64,000 bases of DNA from a virus (IMGVR_UViG_3300037067_010056:2975-66974); one strand, 5' to 3'. Shown: positions 3,318-64,000, counted from the first letter of the stretch. Notes: generated from the letters alone by a model not told the origin. Translations and numbers: made by a program.

Positions 3318-3520
3318 GTCTTCTCTACCTGGGCTTCAAGGTTTGATCTACTATGACCACCATTGAGCACAAAACTTAGACCACAAGCATCGTCACAGAA
3401 CTGACCTACTTCAGCTAGAAGGGTGAGGCATGGGGTTTTACCACAGTAACTACAAGGAGCATCCTCACTATGCTCCCAACACTGGCCGGTAGTTGCACAA
3501 GCGTTCTCTGGGATACACAT
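3314..3520 (-). CDS. Cys-rich small protein
   Basis: Several CxxC motifs; overlaps neighbour. Confidence 0.55.
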   Translation of the reverse strand: MCIPENACATTGQCWEHSEDAPCSYCGKTPCLTLLAEVGQFCDDACGLSFVLNGGHSRSNLEAQVEKT

Positions 3521-3531
3521 ATTAACCCCCT

Positions 3532-3726
3532 TCAGGAGCTTTTCTCAAACTTGCACGGACAAGGACGAGACCCACCATTGACGCTGATGTCCACCCCTGA
3601 ACCACCACAAACAAGACACCTCCCCTCACACGAACACGGATCAACCCTGAGTACAGTCCCCTCCAACTCAGAGGTCAGATCAGAACCACAGTTCGAACAC
3701 TTCAGATCTAAAGTCAAAACTAGCAT
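3532..3726 (-). CDS. Zn-finger-like small protein
   Basis: CSNC, CLVCGG, CPC motifs. Confidence 0.55.
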   Translation of the reverse strand: MLVLTLDLKCSNCGSDLTSELEGTVLRVDPCSCEGRCLVCGGSGVDISVNGGSRPCPCKFEKSS

Positions 3727-5013: not shown

Positions 5014-5223
5014 ATGACCCACCTCCCTCAGTGGCTAACCATCACCCTCCTCGTAGTGTCTGCCCTAGCCATACCCTCCGGTCTCTTCCTGGCTCACCTC
5101 AAAAACACCCGTGACTTCAAACGGTTAGGATTGTCAGGCAAGGACCTTCGAGCCCTGTACTGCTTCTACTTCCTCGGCAAAGGTCAACCGCCCAAGCCCA
5201 TCACCACCCCTGCTCAGGAGTGA
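5014..5223 (+). CDS. Small membrane protein
   Basis: One hydrophobic helix (LTITLLVVSALAI). Confidence 0.55.
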   Translation: MTHLPQWLTITLLVVSALAIPSGLFLAHLKNTRDFKRLGLSGKDLRALYCFYFLGKGQPPKPITTPAQE

Positions 5224-9447: not shown

Positions 9448-9897
9448 TTGGGTTCGGGATACTCGGGCCCCGAACATCTGTCTCTGCTACTGGATGAGGA
9501 GCGCCTTCCGCGTACCGTGCGAGGACGTTCCCCCTGCCTTACTGAAAGAGTGACCGTGCCTGTTGACCTGGAGGAGTTCTGGAATCAAGTGCACCCGAGC
9601 CGGCTTATACATCGGTCGGATACGCCTACTGAAGAGGTTGATGACTTCATTGCCCCAGAGCTACTCATCAAACTCATTAGTCGATTGAAGGTAATACCAG
9701 ACCAACAACAAGAGACCTTCAATAATGATGAGAAGGGCCGAACGAAGGCCAAGATCTGTGTAGTACTCTCTCAGTTGATCCTGGGAGCTAAAGAGGGTGC
9801 TGACGTTGAAGATCAGGCCTATGACCTAATGCACCTACCTACAGACTACCTGCTAAGCACTGGTGAACGGATAATCCGCCTGAAAGGCAAGAGATGA
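9448..9897 (+). CDS. Hypothetical protein
   Basis: Overlaps the next gene; start uncertain. Confidence 0.65.
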   Translation: MGSGYSGPEHLSLLLDEERLPRTVRGRSPCLTERVTVPVDLEEFWNQVHPSRLIHRSDTPTEEVDDFIAPELLIKLISRLKVIPDQQQETFNNDEKGRTKAKICVVLSQLILGAKEGADVEDQAYDLMHLPTDYLLSTGERIIRLKGKR

Positions 9898-10196
9898 AGT
9901 ACCTCAAGCGACTGAAGAACGAGCTCCTGGACCTGACTGAGAAGCTGGCTGTGAAGGGCCCGCTGCCGGAGTATGTGAGCATCAAGAAACGCATTCGGAG
10001 GAACTCCATTCGAGTTGTGGTTGAGATGATCAAGATGGCACGGGCTCTTGATCAGGCCATAGACTACTATACCGATGAGAACGCTGGAGCCTGGGAACAC
10101 TACCTGCGTGAGTTGGAAGATTGGCTGAAGCTAGCCCCCTCAATGCCCCCAAAGCTGGTTGCGAAAAAGAACGAAGTAGTGGCAGTATCGGTGTAA
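9894..10196 (+). CDS. Hypothetical protein
   Basis: ATGA overlap. Confidence 0.7.
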   Translation: MKYLKRLKNELLDLTEKLAVKGPLPEYVSIKKRIRRNSIRVVVEMIKMARALDQAIDYYTDENAGAWEHYLRELEDWLKLAPSMPPKLVAKKNEVVAVSV

Positions 10197-54056: not shown

Positions 54057-55034
54057 CTAGATCACCCTATAGGAGTAGGTTGAGGTATCAAGAGCTATAC
54101 CTACTACAGAGAAACCGACTCCAGCTGATATAGTGACGATCGGGGGTGCCCCTGGTGTCCCACCTCGGGTTAATGGAGTTACGACAACAAAGTTTGATGC
54201 AGTGATCCCAGTGAAGGCTACGGCAACTGGAGTTGCGCCGTTGAGCACGAAGGTGCCTTGTTGTGCATTTGCACTCGGTAATGCGAGGTTTGCAGTCATC
54301 ACTCGATTGCCAGTACCTGTAGTGCTGACTGCTACGAACAGACCGTTACCGAATACCACTGAACCCCAGTTATTATCAGCAGCACTTGTCCTAATGGTCC
54401 AATTGATCCCATCAGGTGAGGTCATCACTCGATTGCCAACTCCGTCAATACTTGTAGCAACGAACAACCCATTCCCGTGTGTCACACTACGCCAGCTATT
54501 ATCAGCAGCACTAGTGCGAATTACCCAAGAGCTTAGTACATTAGTGTAGTTTACGTCACTGTCACGTTCGGTGATTGGGTTAACCCATTGAGCAGCTGTT
54601 CCACTGGTAGCTGTGAGGACTTGACCAGCAGTCGGGGCCGCAGCGGCCGAGACTGCTACCACTGTTGAAGAGGTTCTGATCCCAGAAGCCGTACGGTCGT
54701 CAGATAGACGAGGATCACTGGTCTGAACAGTGTTCTGAGGGATCTCGGCTTCGATCTCTGTTCGCAACTCATCAAGACCACCTGCGGTCAATACAGCCAC
54801 CACTGATGCTCCAGCAGAATGAGTTGTTGGGGTCGTCCCTTCTATACCCCTAGTGACGGTCCAGGTAGCTCCTGAGACTCCAGTAACCAACATGAGCTCT
54901 TGACCAACCCCAATCCTGAATTCAGGCTGAGTTGGAAATCGAGTCGTGCTCTGAACCGTGATGCTTAGATCATCAGCTTCAATCGAGGCGGCCAGGCTAG
55001 TTGAGCCACGAGTAACGAATCTCTCCGTAGTCAT
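54057..55034 (-). CDS. Putative tail/virion structural protein with beta-propeller-type repeats
   Basis: VTRGIEGTT..HSAGASV N-domain; two W.IRTSAADN.W.SV..GNGLFVA.S..G.GNRVMT repeats. Confidence 0.7.
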   Translation of the reverse strand: MTTERFVTRGSTSLAASIEADDLSITVQSTTRFPTQPEFRIGVGQELMLVTGVSGATWTVTRGIEGTTPTTHSAGASVVAVLTAGGLDELRTEIEAEIPQNTVQTSDPRLSDDRTASGIRTSSTVVAVSAAAAPTAGQVLTATSGTAAQWVNPITERDSDVNYTNVLSSWVIRTSAADNSWRSVTHGNGLFVATSIDGVGNRVMTSPDGINWTIRTSAADNNWGSVVFGNGLFVAVSTTGTGNRVMTANLALPSANAQQGTFVLNGATPVAVAFTGITASNFVVVTPLTRGGTPGAPPIVTISAGVGFSVVGIALDTSTYSYRVI

Positions 55035-55809: not shown

Positions 55810-55925
55810 ACTGAATAGAAGCGCATAAGAGCTTCCTCGTGAGGTTGATGGGCCGCACCAATCGGGTTTTATTTGTTAGTTGTTGTGCGGGTAGCCGCTA
55901 TTATGCTAATCTCAACCGGATTACG

Positions 55926-56678
55926 ATGCATTTAGACAACCAGCAAAGAATACGGTACGAGCGGCACATCATGCTCCCCGAGGTAGGAGAGGCTGGTCAA
56001 GTACGTTTACTGAAAAGCAAGGTGCTCCTCGTTGGCGCGGGAGGGCTTGGTTCACCCATTGCGCTCTACTTGGCGGCCGCTGGCGTCGGTACTCTGGGCG
56101 TCGTGGACAACGACTCAGTGAGCCTGTCGAACCTCCAGAGACAGGTTATCCACACTCAAGTAGGCAAGCTCAAGGTCCCTAGCGTCACAGAAGCAATCCA
56201 GAGACTGACCCCGGACGTTTCGACCATCGAGTACCTAGGGCGGATGACTGCAGCCAATGCAGATCAATACTTCAATGTGAACTACGATCTCGTCATCGAT
56301 GCTTGTGATAATCTAGCCACACGGTATATAATCAACGAGAACTGTGTGAAGCGTAAGATCCCTTGGATACATGGGGCGGTCTCGCGATACGAGGGTCAAG
56401 TGACCACGTTCACGTTCGGAACGGCTTGTTATCGATGCTTGTACCCAGATTTAGACATCCTCTTCGGGGGCGGTCGTCCACCTCGTTCTGGTGGCGTGCT
56501 CGGAGTTGTCCCGGGGATGATTGGCATGATACAAGCAACAGAAGCACTCAAGCTACTTCTCAAAATAGGGGACTCTCTATCGGGCCGGATGATTATCTTC
56601 GACGCCCTGAGTATGCGGTTCCAAGAGATGAAGCTCCGCCCCAGGTCAACAAGTTGTCCCGCCTGCAATGGAATTTGA
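55926..56678 (+). CDS. moeB: MoeB/ThiF-family E1-like adenylyltransferase
   Basis: RY.RHI.LPEVG..GQ, GAGGLGSP, SNLQRQ, CYRC, CPAC. Confidence 0.85.
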   Translation: MHLDNQQRIRYERHIMLPEVGEAGQVRLLKSKVLLVGAGGLGSPIALYLAAAGVGTLGVVDNDSVSLSNLQRQVIHTQVGKLKVPSVTEAIQRLTPDVSTIEYLGRMTAANADQYFNVNYDLVIDACDNLATRYIINENCVKRKIPWIHGAVSRYEGQVTTFTFGTACYRCLYPDLDILFGGGRPPRSGGVLGVVPGMIGMIQATEALKLLLKIGDSLSGRMIIFDALSMRFQEMKLRPRSTSCPACNGI

Positions 56679-57600: not shown

Positions 57601-57677
57601 ACTCCACCACCCATACAGTTTGGTATAAGTTTCTTATTTTATCGCACCGCTCGACCCCTCGCGGGATAACTCGCTAT

Positions 57678-59150
57678 TCAATGAACCACTTGAGGCAGCC
57701 GCGACGTCTAAGTCGTCCAAGCTTTCTTGTACGTGCTCCAACCCCCATACACAATGAACCACTGAGCCACACCTTCCGTGGGATTTGTAGATCAAGTCGA
57801 GATTGCTCCAATCCCCCATACACAATAAACCACTGAGGTATCAACCTCCCGATTAGGGGTTGAGGGAAAATCTACATCTAGCTCCAATCCCCCATACACT
57901 CAAAGAACCACTGAGGCCAATCACCGCTATTCTGAAGCGCTCCGCCATACGTGCTCCAACCCCCATACACAATGAACCACTGAGGCCAAAAAAACCTCAT
58001 TGCGCTTTCTTGAAGCACTTATTGCTCCAATCCCCATACACTCAAAGAACCACTGAGGCGTACTTCTAGCCGCGAGGTCAGGAGAGCTACTCTCGCTCCA
58101 ATCCCCATACACAATAAACCACTGAGGCGCTGTCGCCAAAGGAAAAGTCCAAGAAGCCGCCAACCTCCAATCCCCATACACTCAATGAACCACTGAGTCT
58201 GCGAAAACTGGCAGTCCGATGGCCAGTCACTAGAGGCTCCAATCCCCATACACTCAAAGAACCACTGAGGCCCTCGCGCCAGGGCTGACATTGCATTCCG
58301 TCACATTCCTCCAATCCCCATACACAATGAACCACTGAGGCACAATCGTCACGTCGTGATGGCGACCTGATCAGAGACTCCAATCCCCATACACTCAAAG
58401 AACCACTGAGGCCGAGTACTTGGCGCGGATGACCCACGCAAGACGAGTACCTCCAACCCCCATACACTCAAAGAACCACTGAGGCCCGACATCGGCAATC
58501 CCGACAAGGCATCCGTCCTCAAGCTCCAATCCCCATACACTCAAAGAACCACTGAGGCCGTCCATCATCTCAGGAAGAAGCGCTCGGGAGCACAGTCTCC
58601 AATCCCCATACACTCAAAGAACCACTGAGGCCCAACCACAAGGGTCCCCATGCGAGACCTCCGACGAATGCTCCAATCCCCATACACTCAAAGAACCACT
58701 GAGGCCTGCTTCTTTGTCTTCCTGTTCGTAGGAATCCTCGGCTGCTCCAATCCCCATACACTCAAAGAACCACTGAGGCTTCCAGAGGTTCCGCCGAATA
58801 TAGCGAGAGCCTCATGGCTCCAATCCCCATACACTCAAAGAACCACTGAGGCCCCATCTAGGCAGTTACACCGCCGGCACTCGGTTCCTGAGCTCCAATC
58901 CCCATACACTCAATGAACCACTGAGGCTACCGATCACAATTCTACGTAGTCTATACCAGAGAATGGCTCCAATCCCCATACACTCAATGAACCACTGAGG
59001 CGCAAGCGATTGAAGATAAGCCACCAACAGGTGTTGGCTCCAATCCCCATACACTCAATGAACCACTGAGGCCGCAGTCATAAACAACCCGCCAGGTACG
59101 ATTGGACTTGAACCGCTCCAATCCCCATACACTCAATGAACCACTGAGGC
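57678..59150 (-). CRISPR. CRISPR array: 20 repeats (consensus 36 bp) plus 1 partial terminal repeat, 20 spacers of 35-42 bp
   Basis: Plus-strand consensus GCTCCAATCCCCATACACTCAA(A/T)GAACCACTGAGGC. Degeneration at the low-coordinate end places the leader above 59150 and implies minus-strand transcription. Confidence 0.97.
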
Positions 59151-59409
59151 CCTCAGTATGAGATCCTCAGTAGTTCTATACACTTACAATACTACATGCG
59201 AGAGGGTCTGCATAACCGTCTCAGCATGAGTCCTACCTGACTCCCGGTAGATCAGTGAACCGTATAGGTGATACAAACCACCTGGTTACTTCTGACTACA
59301 TGGGAATCAGATGCAAGATTTTCAGAGAACAGTCTCTCTAGTGGAAGAGAGTGCAATGCGAGCGGGTACAAGGTCTAGTATATCACCGAACCGCTCGCAA
59401 GATAAGTTA
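59151..59409 (-). promoter_or_regulatory. CRISPR leader containing anti-repeat elements
   Basis: CCTCAGT at 59151-59157 and CCTCAGTAGTTCT at 59165-59177 are inverted relative to the repeat end. Confidence 0.65.
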
Positions 59410-60147
59410 CTAGGCAGCTTTCGAATCATTCTTCCTAGAACCACCTCGTCTAGCCGACCTAAACCCATCAACCAGAATTTGGAGCTTCCGGTTCTTATCC
59501 CCAGAGATTTCGAGCTTACTCTTCAAGGACGCAATCCTCTTCTTAAGCTTCTTGATGGTCTCGTTCGCTTGGACTAGTTCTTCCTTGGCCGTGGTTCTGG
59601 AATCCATCCTTACTCTCTTTGTCATTGATCCCGGGTTGGCTTCCCCAACTTCAGCTATCAGACGGATAACCTCCAACCTCAACAAGAAGGACTTCTTGTT
59701 GGTAGTCATGTACTCAACTACCTTGTCGAAACCTTTTGTGTGGAACTTCGTCTGAAGCTTCTTTGTGACAAGAACCGCCGCGCTCAGACCAATCTTCTTC
59801 AGCACGTTCAATGGGGTTCGTGCAAGGGCTACCTTGCAATCCCCATATCGTGTTGGGTCATAGATGTCACGTTTCCGGAGGAAGGTTGCAAAACTCCACT
59901 TAGTGCTATCCGACTCATTCCGCCAAATGGAATCCTCGATCTCCAACTGGTAGAGATAGAGTACAATACGCTCCTCATTGACCTCAGCAGCTACCTTTAG
60001 GCGAGTTAGCTCCTTTAGGACTATAGCCCAACTCTCCCCCTCCACCAGCTCTGGAGCTTTGCTGTCACGGATGAGATTCTTGAGACGTACCTCTTCTAGT
60101 TGCGTTTGCATCTTTAGTGGTCTTTCTGGTAGGTGCTTGGACTTCAA
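59410..60147 (-). CDS. Basic cas-linked hypothetical protein with C-terminal coiled coil
   Basis: Lies between cas gene and leader and overlaps the cas 3' end; start 60147 or 60111. Confidence 0.8.
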   Translation of the reverse strand: MKSKHLPERPLKMQTQLEEVRLKNLIRDSKAPELVEGESWAIVLKELTRLKVAAEVNEERIVLYLYQLEIEDSIWRNESDSTKWSFATFLRKRDIYDPTRYGDCKVALARTPLNVLKKIGLSAAVLVTKKLQTKFHTKGFDKVVEYMTTNKKSFLLRLEVIRLIAEVGEANPGSMTKRVRMDSRTTAKEELVQANETIKKLKKRIASLKSKLEISGDKNRKLQILVDGFRSARRGGSRKNDSKAA

Positions 60148-62038
60148 TTGAAGGTGCTTCCGATTCGGAAGTTTCCAGATTAGTTGTTTGATTCTTACGG
60201 GCTCTGCTGTCTCGGATCACCTTCCGGAAGCTCTCACTCACCGCATCGTAGTCATACACCTTGCTCGGCGTTCCAGCTCTGAAGGTGGCCCAAGCGGTCA
60301 AGAAGTCTTTGGGGATCTCTTGCTTACACTCGTCGTTGTTGCAAATGTAGTTGCTGGATATCTTGTCAAACTCCATCTTCCCTTTCAGGCACGATGGGCA
60401 TAGAGAAGTTCCAACCTTGAGTACTCGGTAGTTGATCCCCGCCTTGGTCAAGGCCCAGATAATCTTCTCACGAAGTAGTGCACTCGGGAACCGCCTCAGG
60501 ATCTTCTCAATGCGCTTGTCCGGGTGATGCGCGAGGTGGGTGCTCCAATCATTGAGCAACACTTCAGCATAGGGCTCTCGAGTCTGAACCCAACCTTCGT
60601 GAGTCAAGGTCATCCCGCTCGCCAGTCTAGCGACTAAGGAACCTTGTTGCTCACAATAGCTCTTGGTGAACAAAGCTTCCTTCTCTGAGACCTCCGTTTT
60701 GATCCTCAAGAATCGATTTCGACCGTGACCCCGAGCTCCACGTCCTTGATGATTCAGGTGTTGAGCCATGCTACTCCGTTTGGCGTCGAAAGCCAACTTG
60801 GTCTGGAGAAGGCTGTCTTGGACCAGATCGTAGGTGAACACCTCGTTTGGATCTTTCCCTAACGCCTTGAACTGTTTCAATGACTTGGCTGTGGGCTTAT
60901 GAGGTGTCCGCCGACCTTCGAATTGAAGCCGATGAGCAAAGTAAGACTTGCTGTCGTCTACCCTACCAACACCGCGACCATTACTAGCCCACAGGCGTAG
61001 GATTGAATCCAGACCAGGGCAGACTACGAGAGTGTCCACGCCTTCTTTTGTGCTTGGTCTTGGGTAGGAGTAGGACACCTTAAGTTGGAACCGATAACGG
61101 TCATCATCCCATACCAGGCGAGCACCCCCTATCGTGTACTCACTTCCCGGCTTCAGGATCTTGTGAAGGGTTGACCATTGAGAGTTGCCTCTTGCAACAG
61201 CTTTTCCTGTCAAGTGGGGTGACCGGCCATTGACAGCTGCTCGTAGAGTAAGGATTACATCGAGATCGCGTCCGCATAGCACTAAGTCAAAGCACTCTCG
61301 AGGTAATGGGAGGCTCTTAGCCTTGAACCAAGGTGGAGATTGTTCAGCCTCTTTCTTAAGCCAGGTCCTCATCTTATCTGAGGCTTGTTTAGAAGCAAAA
61401 GCGGTCAAGCTCCCCGAAAGAGGGTTGTCACTTAACTTGTTACGAGTAGCACCCTCTTTCGCCTTCTTGCCCTTCGAGGTCTTGAGTTGGACGCGCTCTA
61501 CCGTAGCGCCGATAGCTTCAGCCAAAACTGGGTATGGCTCTCTACCTTCCTCTTTGAGGAGTGATCTGACTACAGCTCGTTGCCCTTTAGTGACCAACTG
61601 GATCACCTCGAATAGTTCTGGGTAGTGATCTACCGGCTCCTCCTTGGGCTTGGCTTCATCTTGAGTAGCTGTCTCTTCTGCTCCCTTCTTAGGCTTCTTT
61701 TTCTTGTGCTTCTTCACCCACTTCTGGTGGGCTACTTGCTGACCTTCAGCGGCTTCGCCCTCTGTTTTAGCATGCCAGCTCCAAGGTTCGAGTTCGAGTG
61801 TCACTGATCCTGGGATACGGAAACAACACTCAATAGCGTCTTGTGATCGCTCATCCATCCATTCAGAGCGAGGGCGACCAATGAGCTTGTTCCCATCCTT
61901 GACCTGCCACCCCTTAGAGGTCTTGTTGACATAAGGCTTTTCAACCCCTCGATTCCTGAGTTCCTCAACTAACCATAGTGAAGTGGCGGCTACAACGGGG
62001 TCTACTTCAGCTTTTGGCTTTGTACTAGGCATACACAT
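60065..62038 (-). CDS. cas12f: Cas12f/TnpB-like type V effector, predicted nuclease-dead
   Basis: WED motif LHKIL..EYTIGGARLV..RFQLKVSYSY; RGHGR; TSLCPSC...CNNDEC Zn finger; RuvC-I VVCPG (D to C), RuvC-II LLND (E to N), RuvC-III KD intact. Confidence 0.8.
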   Translation of the reverse strand: MCMPSTKPKAEVDPVVAATSLWLVEELRNRGVEKPYVNKTSKGWQVKDGNKLIGRPRSEWMDERSQDAIECCFRIPGSVTLELEPWSWHAKTEGEAAEGQQVAHQKWVKKHKKKKPKKGAEETATQDEAKPKEEPVDHYPELFEVIQLVTKGQRAVVRSLLKEEGREPYPVLAEAIGATVERVQLKTSKGKKAKEGATRNKLSDNPLSGSLTAFASKQASDKMRTWLKKEAEQSPPWFKAKSLPLPRECFDLVLCGRDLDVILTLRAAVNGRSPHLTGKAVARGNSQWSTLHKILKPGSEYTIGGARLVWDDDRYRFQLKVSYSYPRPSTKEGVDTLVVCPGLDSILRLWASNGRGVGRVDDSKSYFAHRLQFEGRRTPHKPTAKSLKQFKALGKDPNEVFTYDLVQDSLLQTKLAFDAKRSSMAQHLNHQGRGARGHGRNRFLRIKTEVSEKEALFTKSYCEQQGSLVARLASGMTLTHEGWVQTREPYAEVLLNDWSTHLAHHPDKRIEKILRRFPSALLREKIIWALTKAGINYRVLKVGTSLCPSCLKGKMEFDKISSNYICNNDECKQEIPKDFLTAWATFRAGTPSKVYDYDAVSESFRKVIRDSRARKNQTTNLETSESEAPSIEVQAPTRKTTKDANATRRGTSQESHP

Positions 62039-62058
62039 CTCTCATGCTGGTGTAGGGA

Positions 62059-62300
62059 GCCTTCGAGCCGTAGTCCGATGGCAATTGACTTGTTGAGAAC
62101 ATGCCATTTTGACCAACTCCAACTCCACAACCCCTACATTCAGTGGATCAAAGCAGAAAACTGGACCAGATTGTGAGAATGTATGGGGTCTGACCACTCT
62201 GGGTCAGACTTAGCTGAGTGCATGATAGCCTCGCCTTAAGGGCTATGGAGGTGCCCTAATAACACACTATCTGGTCCAGTTTTCTGCTTTGTTCCGTGAT
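62059..62300 (-). ncRNA. Candidate structured guide-scaffold/tracr-like RNA upstream of the cas gene
   Basis: 23-bp perfect IR (62149-62171/62269-62291), two internal hairpins, anti-repeat 62174-62188, degenerate repeat 62123-62143; strand inferred. Confidence 0.55.
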
Positions 62301-62306
62301 TCACAG

Positions 62307-62335
62307 ACTATCTCACGAGTTGCCTGGACTTGCAA
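62307..62335 (-). promoter_or_regulatory. Putative sigma70-type promoter TTGCAA-N17-GATAGT
   Basis: Lies between the upstream terminator and the 5' arm of the structured element. Confidence 0.35.
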
Positions 62336-62343
62336 CAGAAAAT

Positions 62344-62382
62344 GACACAGGCCTGCTAATTTATCATTAGCAGGCCTGTGTC
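62344..62382 (-). terminator. Rho-independent terminator of 62394-62660
   Basis: 17-bp perfect stem, 5-nt loop, followed by ATTTTCT on the minus strand. Confidence 0.75.
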
Positions 62383-62393
62383 GAAGGTCAGGA

Positions 62394-62660
62394 CTACCAC
62401 CGGACATCGGCAGGGAGTCGCTCATAAGCCCGTTGGCAATCATCCTCGTACTTCATCGCAGTAGAGATTTTGCCTTCTAGCCGGAGGCCGATGGCAATTG
62501 ACTTGTTGAGGGCGTAGCAGGCCAAGACTTCAACGATCTTATGAGCATCCGACCGATTCCCTACGATCTCAGAAGCCTTATTCCTAGTGGTGACATGCCA
62601 CTTGGACCAGAAGGACCGTAGTTCGTCTTGGTTCATCGAGTCGAAGTTCGGAATCTCCAT
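62394..62660 (-). CDS. Hypothetical protein; a 39-nt internal segment is copied at 62059-62097
   Basis: ATG 6 nt after class A motif. Confidence 0.75.
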   Translation of the reverse strand: MEIPNFDSMNQDELRSFWSKWHVTTRNKASEIVGNRSDAHKIVEVLACYALNKSIAIGLRLEGKISTAMKYEDDCQRAYERLPADVRW

Positions 62661-63481: not shown

Positions 63482-64000
63482 ATGCCTCTCTATGAGTTCG
63501 GAGTAACACGCTCGTATCAGTGGTATGGGGCTGCCGTCGGGCAGTATGGTGGCCACTGGGAAGTCAGGGGAAGTATCCAGAGGGAGCGCAAGACTCTCCT
63601 CAGTCTAGAGGTTGACGAGCCTCTCACTCTGTTCGTTGATGAGCTGACGAACCGCCTTCGAGAGTTGGAGTTGGTTGACCTCGACATCGGACCTATTGGC
63701 GAGGACGGTATTCCAACCCTCGATTGCGTTCGTAGAGGGCAGGGTCCTTTTGATGTTGATGGGACTCTCTTACTTGCTATTCGTTCTGTGTGCTCTATCG
63801 ATGGGGTTACTGACTGGGATAACTATAATGGGGGTCGATTCGCTGACAGACACCAAGGCGTCATCCTCACAGGTGGGCTGGCATTCATCGAGGGGATCAA
63901 GGTTGGTACTGACCTCGAAGGGCAGGACCCAACCCGCGTGATCGAACAGACGTGTCTTATGCTGGCCGGAAAAGACTTCGACCGTAACACACCTAATCTC
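63482..64000 (+). CDS. Hypothetical protein, truncated by window end
   Basis: Open from ATG 63482 (MPLYEFGVTR...) to 64000 with no stop. Confidence 0.65.
   Translation, partial: MPLYEFGVTRSYQWYGAAVGQYGGHWEVRGSIQRERKTLLSLEVDEPLTLFVDELTNRLRELELVDLDIGPIGEDGIPTLDCVRRGQGPFDVDGTLLLAIRSVCSIDGVTDWDNYNGGRFADRHQGVILTGGLAFIEGIKVGTDLEGQDPTRVIEQTCLMLAGKDFDRNTPNL

Follow-up and report, generated by a model that had tools for sequence, protein, structure and literature searches.

A phage-borne, predicted nuclease-dead Cas12f module with a covarying tracrRNA, a conserved partner gene and a changing CRISPR array

The CRISPR locus described here lies on the minus strand of a 64,000-nt stretch of viral DNA (IMGVR_UViG_3300037067_010056:2975-66974, referred to below as the window; the full record, G000, is 67 kb) and very probably represents a working module in which a nuclease-dead Cas12f protein (dCas12f) depends on a trans-activating CRISPR RNA (tracrRNA). 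On its sequence features and by analogy with known systems, we give a probability of about 0.55 to the reading that the module interferes by binding only and that a second protein, encoded directly after dCas12f and called the partner here, is involved. Use against competitors or host genes, with the partner as a possible co-factor, would be the best reading of its purpose.

We compared the window with related loci labelled L001, L002, L003, L005, L006, L007 and L009 and with the virus records G000-G004, in a comparative context of five independent related locus types. The module occupies 57676-62335, and its parts follow one another on the minus strand in the order promoter-like element, structured RNA, repeat-like element, dCas12f open reading frame (ORF), partner ORF, leader and array, as listed here together with the terminator that precedes them:

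62344..62382, minus strand: intrinsic terminator of an upstream 88-aa ORF, a 17-bp stem followed by a T-run, kept in L001 and L003 and marking the 5' border of the module
62307..62335, minus strand: promoter-like element with a -35-like hexamer (62335-62330), a 17-nt spacer and a -10-like hexamer (62312-62307)
62140..62300, minus strand: predicted tracrRNA with a ~35-bp closing stem, three internal hairpins and, at ~62175-62188, an anti-repeat that is left unpaired
62107..62147, minus strand: degenerate repeat-like element, 3' of the tracrRNA and just before the cas start
60065..62038, minus strand: dCas12f gene, an ORF of 657 aa supported by profile, alignment, AlphaFold2 (AF2) model and Foldseek
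59410..60111, minus strand: partner gene, 233 aa, its ATG (60111) lying inside the 3' end of the dCas12f ORF
59151..59409, minus strand: leader, 259 nt, with a short anti-repeat at ~59165-59177
57676..59150, minus strand: CRISPR array of 20 repeats plus a truncated terminal repeat, with 20 spacers

An initial annotation of this DNA had described gene, partner, leader and array as co-oriented, and all of them do lie on the minus strand; the extent it gave was right for the array and the genes but not for the upstream limit, as the module begins at ~62335, beyond 62038, and includes an RNA gene. The genes that flank the module vary by locus (an RNA ligase, a DHH phosphoesterase, an M50 peptidase, a DinG-like helicase), and the conserved core therefore consists of tracrRNA, effector, partner and array.

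It is the structured RNA of ~190 nt directly upstream of the effector, on the same strand, that ties these parts together. A duplex scan pointed to 62100-62300, which holds a perfect 22-bp long-range stem and internal hairpins, and this RNA is conserved in L001 and L003 (95% and 71% protein identity, respectively). For the window, L001 and L003, RNAalifold predicted 53 pairs; compensatory changes occur in 8 of these, and one is broken. The three sequences were used to build a covariance model (R1), which was then run on the divergent loci and matched L009 with 82 bits (E 5e-21), L006 and L007 with 78 bits (E 7e-20) and L005 with 48 bits (E 1.6e-11), each match lying on the strand of a Cas12f-like gene and directly before its conserved N-terminal domain. 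Of the paired cells across six loci, 96% are canonical, and 31 of the 53 pairs show compensatory changes, in an alignment that was fitted to the R1 model and hence leans towards the structure. Duplex-energy scans for the anti-repeat did not discriminate in the GC-rich loci, whereas the covariance model did, and an Rfam scan of the window and the loci returned no family for this RNA.

The anti-repeat lies, unpaired, between the third hairpin and the closing stem's 3' strand. Its sequence complements the repeat's 3' half and covaries with the repeat in four repeat types (window, L003, L006/7 and L005), and therefore array, RNA and protein form one system. On these sequence patterns, the structured RNA is a tracrRNA. 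The covariation across loci also rules out a TnpB relic standing beside an unrelated array, the case that the initial annotation had set against its preferred Cas12f derivative, and the latter is borne out by a tracrRNA of its own. In the GC-rich relatives the database ORFs read through the tracrRNA (L006 9965-10109, L009 9995-10139, L005 2077-2267); since these ORFs start upstream of it and cross it, their annotated N-termini are artefacts.

The element at 62107-62147 is similar to the repeat's 3' half and, in L003, varies along with the repeat. Combined with the cis-located anti-repeat, it could give a natural single-guide-like RNA, whose 'guide' would be the cas 5' untranslated region (UTR), and autoregulation through this element is possible. 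No convincing target was found for such a guide; a 14-nt low-complexity match at 63662 was rejected as chance.

Every effector residue named in the initial annotation is present in the 657-aa ORF: GHGR at 437-440, the zinc-finger cysteines 547, 550, 566 and 571, Cys340, Asn496, Asp578 and a poly-Lys patch at 109-118. The database call (P0003) begins two codons downstream and is 655 aa long, and the true start is probably at 62032. As a single sequence, the effector had no relevant match in Pfam and NCBIfam, matched Cas12u3 at E 0.004 in PADLOC and, in a PDB search, reached Cas12f1 at E 0.46 with the GHG motif only. An exhaustive phmmer search of 1.84 billion representatives returned 105 relatives, and a profile and alignment were built from 110 members of this family, which comprises at least 105 clusters at 50% identity. 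AsCas12f chains are matched by the profile along almost their full length (residues 11-418) at E 2.6e-67, other Cas12f proteins at 1e-27 to 1e-61, the Sternberg dCas12f (9n9c) at 4e-15 and Cas12m at 6.6e-5. With the family alignment as input, AF2 gave a model with a predicted local distance difference test (pLDDT) score of 84.8 and a predicted template modelling (pTM) score of 0.80, for which the top Foldseek matches were all Cas12f (8j12_A at 2.9e-18); Cas12m reached 3e-10 against 3e-18 for Cas12f. PF07282 (the Cas12f1-like TNB domain) was matched by 21 of 40 relatives, and the four zinc-finger cysteines are at least 90% conserved among the 110. The profile hidden Markov model and structure searches thus uphold the assignment to the Cas12f type, and on profile and predicted fold the effector is a true Cas12f-clade protein.

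The N-terminal extension with the poly-Lys patch, put at about 200 aa in the initial annotation, keeps its patch but not its size: query residues ~206-216 align with AsCas12f residue 95, so that the surplus over AsCas12f is ~110 aa. It consists of a small folded domain, common to much of the family, and a Lys-rich disordered insert. For the N-terminal 200 residues, a language-model atlas gave leads too weak to be of use.

By profile alignment to AsCas12f, the RuvC-I Asp falls in the column of Cys340, the RuvC-II Glu in that of Asn496 and the RuvC-III Asp in that of Asp578, in line with the initial call of two substituted motifs and a kept third. Among the 110 sequences, the RuvC-I column holds His in 46, Arg in 37, Cys in 9 and mainly aliphatic residues in the rest. 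Neither Asp nor Glu occurs there in any of the 110, which dates the loss of the RuvC-I Asp to the ancestor of the whole family. The RuvC-II column holds Glu in 82 and Asp in 8, and the RuvC-III column Asp in 82 and Glu in 11. The query clade additionally lacks the RuvC-II Glu, and in two close relatives the RuvC-III acid is gone as well, a pattern which looks like progressive decay. From these alignments, the effector has most likely lost its DNA-cutting chemistry.

The partner gene was mentioned in the initial annotation but underweighted, and it is in fact the accessory feature with the strongest conservation in the module. A homologue of ~200-245 aa follows the Cas12f-like gene in every one of L001, L003, L005, L006 and L009, with 23-68% identity to the window copy by alignment (95% for the L001 copy). 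An overlap of 4 to 47 nt between the start of the partner and the stop of the effector occurs in each of the five divergent locus types, and partner and effector are therefore probably translationally coupled. A partner profile search found 13 clusters, all unnamed; for three of them the longest contigs (62,528, 28,072 and 4,760 bp) have the same lengths as those of the effector homologues P0009, P0006 and P0005, and the partner family appears to occur only with the dCas12f-like effector family.

The AF2 model of the partner (pLDDT 81) shows a helical domain (residues 7-158), a single helix of ~50 residues forming a coiled coil, and a basic tail. No family was found for it in Pfam, NCBIfam, PADLOC or PHROG, its sequence matched nothing beyond coiled coils among solved structures, and Foldseek of the model gave nothing significant. 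With VIA-align, the DNA-binding domains of ParB, Spo0J and KorB were among the top four domain matches to residues 25-168, and the language-model atlas gave a DUF3102 lead. Seven partner members had no Pfam match, and for an N-terminal ParB/Srx CTPase domain the ~25 residues before the helical domain leave little room. From the model, a dimeric DNA-binding protein may be taken as a lead for the partner, not as a finding.

The array, delimited by script, has 20 full repeats of 34-37 nt running from 59150 down to 57735, a truncated 21st at 57696, and 20 spacers of 35-42 nt, which agrees with the spacer count of the initial annotation. Near 59150 its repeats are perfect, and they decay in the direction of 57700, which places the leader at 59151-59409, with transcription on the minus strand. 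Arrays are present in the window, L001, L002, L003, L005, L006 and L007, with repeats that across the family are 36 nt long and share their last bases; none was found in L009. At L001 12888-14351, 13 identical repeats are followed by at least seven with another 5' half and the same 3' half, which fits a tracrRNA and protein that read the 3' half. The leader carries an anti-repeat to the 5' half of the first repeat (window 59165-59177, minus strand; L002 ~3509-3535; L003 ~5054-5078) that can form a hairpin with this repeat, an arrangement which is conserved in three loci and may govern how the first unit is processed.

Between near-identical phages, spacers have been gained and lost, and the system is in use. 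The window and L002 encode an identical protein and have window spacers 13-15 in common, while on the leader side L002 has eight different spacers where the window has twelve. L007 has one leader-end spacer more than L006, L001 shares only the oldest spacer with the window, and in run contigs from landfill, groundwater and peat, blocks of spacers are skipped or replaced beside genes that are 95-100% identical. It is hardly credible that the module is a decaying, non-functional Cas12f remnant, as the missing catalytic residues and adaptation genes could be taken to mean, when its arrays are still changing and more than 100 clusters at 50% identity conserve the ORF, the zinc finger, the GHG motif, the tracrRNA structure and the partner.

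Phage carriage, as initially proposed, is confirmed by the IMG/VR virus records and by tail-protein PHROG matches among the window proteins. CheckV rates G000, an IMG/VR virus record, as 13% complete at 67 kb and G001, the 98.5-kb carrier of the 95%-identical relative, as 19% complete, both of which imply a genome near 0.5 Mb. The distant loci lie in phage genomes of ~106 kb, two of which are rated 99-100% complete, one of them, with direct terminal repeats, at 100%. A scan of 185,579 species genomes found a single relative, on a 4.4-kb contig of a metagenome-assembled genome (MAG). Cas1, Cas2 and TniQ (PF06527) are absent from the five virus records, including the two rated 99-100% complete, and sigma70_r2 (PF04542) is absent from G000, G002, G003 and G004 and has one match in G001, ~37 kb from the locus; for the 67-kb record, these searches for Cas1, Cas2, TniQ and sigma70_r2 agree with the initial statement that no cas1/2/4, Tn7 genes or sigma factor is recognisable. 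Spacer turnover that is polarised, in phages whose complete genomes have no cas1-cas2, suggests that a host system carries out adaptation in trans. The host-dependent acquisition suggested in the initial annotation thus fits both the absent genes and the turnover, with the host as the probable agent, and adaptation in trans has been proposed for huge phages generally (Al-Shayeb et al., 2020; PMC7162821).

We propose the following mechanism. From the gene order observed, the minus strand would yield the tracrRNA, dCas12f, a translationally coupled partner and a 20-spacer precursor CRISPR RNA (pre-crRNA). The anti-repeat of the tracrRNA would pair with the 3' half of each repeat, with which it is complementary and covaries, and the resulting guide complex would load on dCas12f, probably as a dimer as in Cas12f. 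This complex would bind matching double-stranded DNA (dsDNA) next to a protospacer-adjacent motif (PAM) and remain there, so that a rival mobile element, or host genes, would be kept from being transcribed or replicated instead of being cut. Weak leads suggest that a dimerising partner, possibly of ParB/KorB DNA-binding type, would most likely act as a co-factor at the bound site, for instance to stabilise or extend the roadblock. Host Cas1-Cas2, acting in trans, would insert new spacers at the leader end, where turnover is seen. Precedents for interference by binding only are offered by Cas12m (PMC10442227) and by the remark on a 'dCas14' in PMC7162821. A stronger version, in which the partner is a new CRISPR co-effector and dCas12f loads a dimeric ParB/KorB-like protein to form an RNA-programmed silencing or DNA-bridging complex, is speculative and rather doubtful; if true, phages of ~100 kb to ~0.5 Mb would shut down rival elements without cutting, by means of dCas12f and a ParB/KorB-like partner.

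Several observations weigh against binding-only interference with an involved partner. Most of the family retains the RuvC-II Glu (82/110) and the RuvC-III Asp (82/110), which suggests that the pocket may still be functional, for instance in RNA processing or nicking. Glu492, which shares strand and face with residue 496, is overrepresented in sequences without the canonical Glu (9 of 20 sequences against 15 of 90) and could rebuild the active site in part. For the partner, the VIA-align Z scores are only 6.7, 6.1 and 5.9 (ParB, Spo0J and KorB), below the caution level of the tool, where a match can be a common arrangement, and this protein could be merely a regulator. Lastly, no protospacers were found for the window array in GenBank phages, PLSDB plasmids or the four related virus records, for two spacers in IMG/VR, or for all spacers of all loci in the phage's own 67-kb record and the related loci. 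A partial spacer match at G001:68387-68413 includes repeat bases and was rejected as chance.

One alternative is that the effector is still a nuclease with a rearranged site, be it a nickase, a collateral single-stranded DNase or a pre-crRNA-processing RNase, and that interference involves cutting. About three quarters of the family keep the RuvC-II/III Glu and Asp despite the ancient loss of the RuvC-I Asp, and beside the enrichment of Glu492 where Glu496 is lost, the occurrence of His in the RuvC-I column of 46 of the 110 sequences would suit such a site. Altae-Tran et al. (2023; PMC10691335) moreover make the case that activity persists in many TnpB/Cas12 groups whose catalytic residues have been replaced. 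We nevertheless consider this unlikely, as no acid replaces the RuvC-I Asp across the family, and the only remaining conserved acidic columns, 452 and 454, lie in a helix away from motif I. The Cys/Asn/Asp set of the query, with the RuvC-III acid lost in two close relatives, resembles progressive decay instead. Of the two residues named at the outset as possible rescuers of the active site, Asp344 is not conserved even in the close clade, and Asp497 is the ordinary second residue of the RuvC-II motif (85/110).

Another possibility, a minority reading that we take seriously, is that dCas12f alone carries out silencing of the CRISPR interference (CRISPRi) type and that the partner is a mere transcription regulator of the locus. 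The start/stop overlap in five divergent locus types argues otherwise, as it points to coupled, stoichiometric synthesis, and so does a partner family (13 clusters) that seems confined to this effector family. Small regulators of helix-turn-helix (HTH) type are, on the other hand, common beside cas operons, HTH proteins accompany dCas12f-sigmaE loci (PMC13472631), and the best fold leads of the partner are DNA-binding domains.

RNA-guided recruitment could also serve other ends, such as activation, ParB-like tethering or partition, or a decoy for host Cas12f guides (an anti-CRISPR). Together with sigmaE, dead Cas12f has been co-opted for activation (PMC13472631), and the weak ParB/KorB-like and DUF3102 leads of the partner would accord with such a role. 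We hold it to be improbable: the locus lacks a sigma factor, arrays that are long and turn over at the leader end typify immunity or competition, not housekeeping, and the module's own tracrRNA and array argue against a pure decoy. Binding-only interference with the partner involved stays the reading that we prefer.

Among known systems, the AsCas12f/OsCas12f/SpCas12f1 group (type V-F, Cas14) is the best sequence and structure match to the effector, and the module resembles it in fold, domain order, C4 zinc finger, GHG motif, tracrRNA, 36-nt repeats and small size. It differs in that its clade lacks the RuvC-I Asp and the query also the RuvC-II Glu, so that the Asp-Glu-Asp triad is not intact, and in adding ~110 N-terminal residues, an obligatory partner gene and phage carriage. 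The dCas12f-sigmaE systems (PMC13472631; PDB 9n9c) are likewise built on a nuclease-dead Cas12f descendant, which binds DNA by guide RNA. Their match is distant, however (E 4e-15, where active AsCas12f reaches 2.6e-67), and they are C-terminally truncated, equipped with fused single guides, mostly without arrays, and found beside rpoE, whereas the module has an intact C-terminus, zinc finger and RuvC-III Asp, a separate tracrRNA, a long array and no adjacent sigma factor. The same 2026 paper (PMC13472631) describes a separate cluster of CRISPR-associated dCas12f in Chitinophagaceae, with C-terminal truncations.

Cas12m (V-M) shares a non-canonical RuvC with the module and interferes by tight DNA binding and silencing (PMC10442227). 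It represents a different Cas12 lineage (profile E 6.6e-5) and has no partner protein. Cas12m functions with CRISPR RNA (crRNA) alone. Cas12k, of the V-K CRISPR-associated transposons (CAST), and TldR are dead TnpB/Cas12 relatives that serve as RNA-guided DNA binders, both on other branches, and the module differs from V-K CAST in having no Tn7 genes (PF06527 is absent from the five records). TldR has no array and uses an omega-RNA guide. Cas12r of the Thermus Lalka phages was considered as a relative and rejected, having an active RuvC, 29-bp repeats and no tracrRNA.

A precedent by description is found in huge phages, for which Al-Shayeb et al. (2020; PMC7162821) reported new V-F subtypes and a 'dCas14' without a catalytic residue, with a spacer against the host glycyl-tRNA synthetase and repression as its proposed role. 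Like the module, it is phage-encoded, lacks a catalytic residue and has no Cas1/2/4, and the record of the window, too, is predicted to be a fragment of a very large phage. The paper gives it one sentence, with no analysis of partner, tracrRNA or family. Large Cas12f branches whose catalytic sites are altered were described by Altae-Tran et al. (2023; PMC10691335), who cautioned that these sites might still be active. A phage dCas12f is therefore no new idea, and the word 'distinct', used in the initial annotation, does not hold for the concept. In the literature searched, no paper dealt with a Cas12 that has a ParB-like partner, and the clade-wide loss of the Asp together with an intact C-terminus, a conserved tracrRNA, an obligatory partner and ongoing spacer turnover also seem undescribed there. 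The family of at least 105 clusters, seen almost only in phage and metagenome contigs, would represent a naturally dead Cas12f with full CRISPR logic, and an independent path from Cas12f to a binding-only effector, apart from dCas12f-sigmaE. Such a protein may offer a compact, naturally nuclease-free and multiplexed DNA binder, and a test case for CRISPR use by phages without cutting and without adaptation genes of their own.

Some further features of the loci may be recorded. The promoter-like element at 62307..62335 is conserved in L001 and L003 and scores below a strict sigma-70 consensus scan; we only infer a promoter here, from the sequence. A 39-nt direct repeat (36/39 identical) occurs at 62059-62097, in the cas 5' UTR, and at 62472-62510, within the 88-aa ORF that lies upstream. 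L001 and L002 have it, L003 does not, and it looks like a recombination or duplication scar. Next to the module in the window lie a tail-fibre-like protein with a K1-lyase C-terminal domain (54057-55034, minus strand) and a ThiF-family enzyme (55839-56678, plus strand). In L005, on an Armatimonadetes MAG contig, a DinG-like helicase (98-2065; Helicase_C_2 plus DEAD) lies directly 5' of the tracrRNA and recalls type IV systems; it is not kept at the other loci. Just 5' of the tracrRNA in L006, ~9850-9900 resembles the T-arm and acceptor 3' end of a tRNA, where the Rfam scan called neither a tRNA nor another family, and this stretch may be the remnant of an attachment (att) site. Spacer 1 of the window also opens with a T-arm-like motif.

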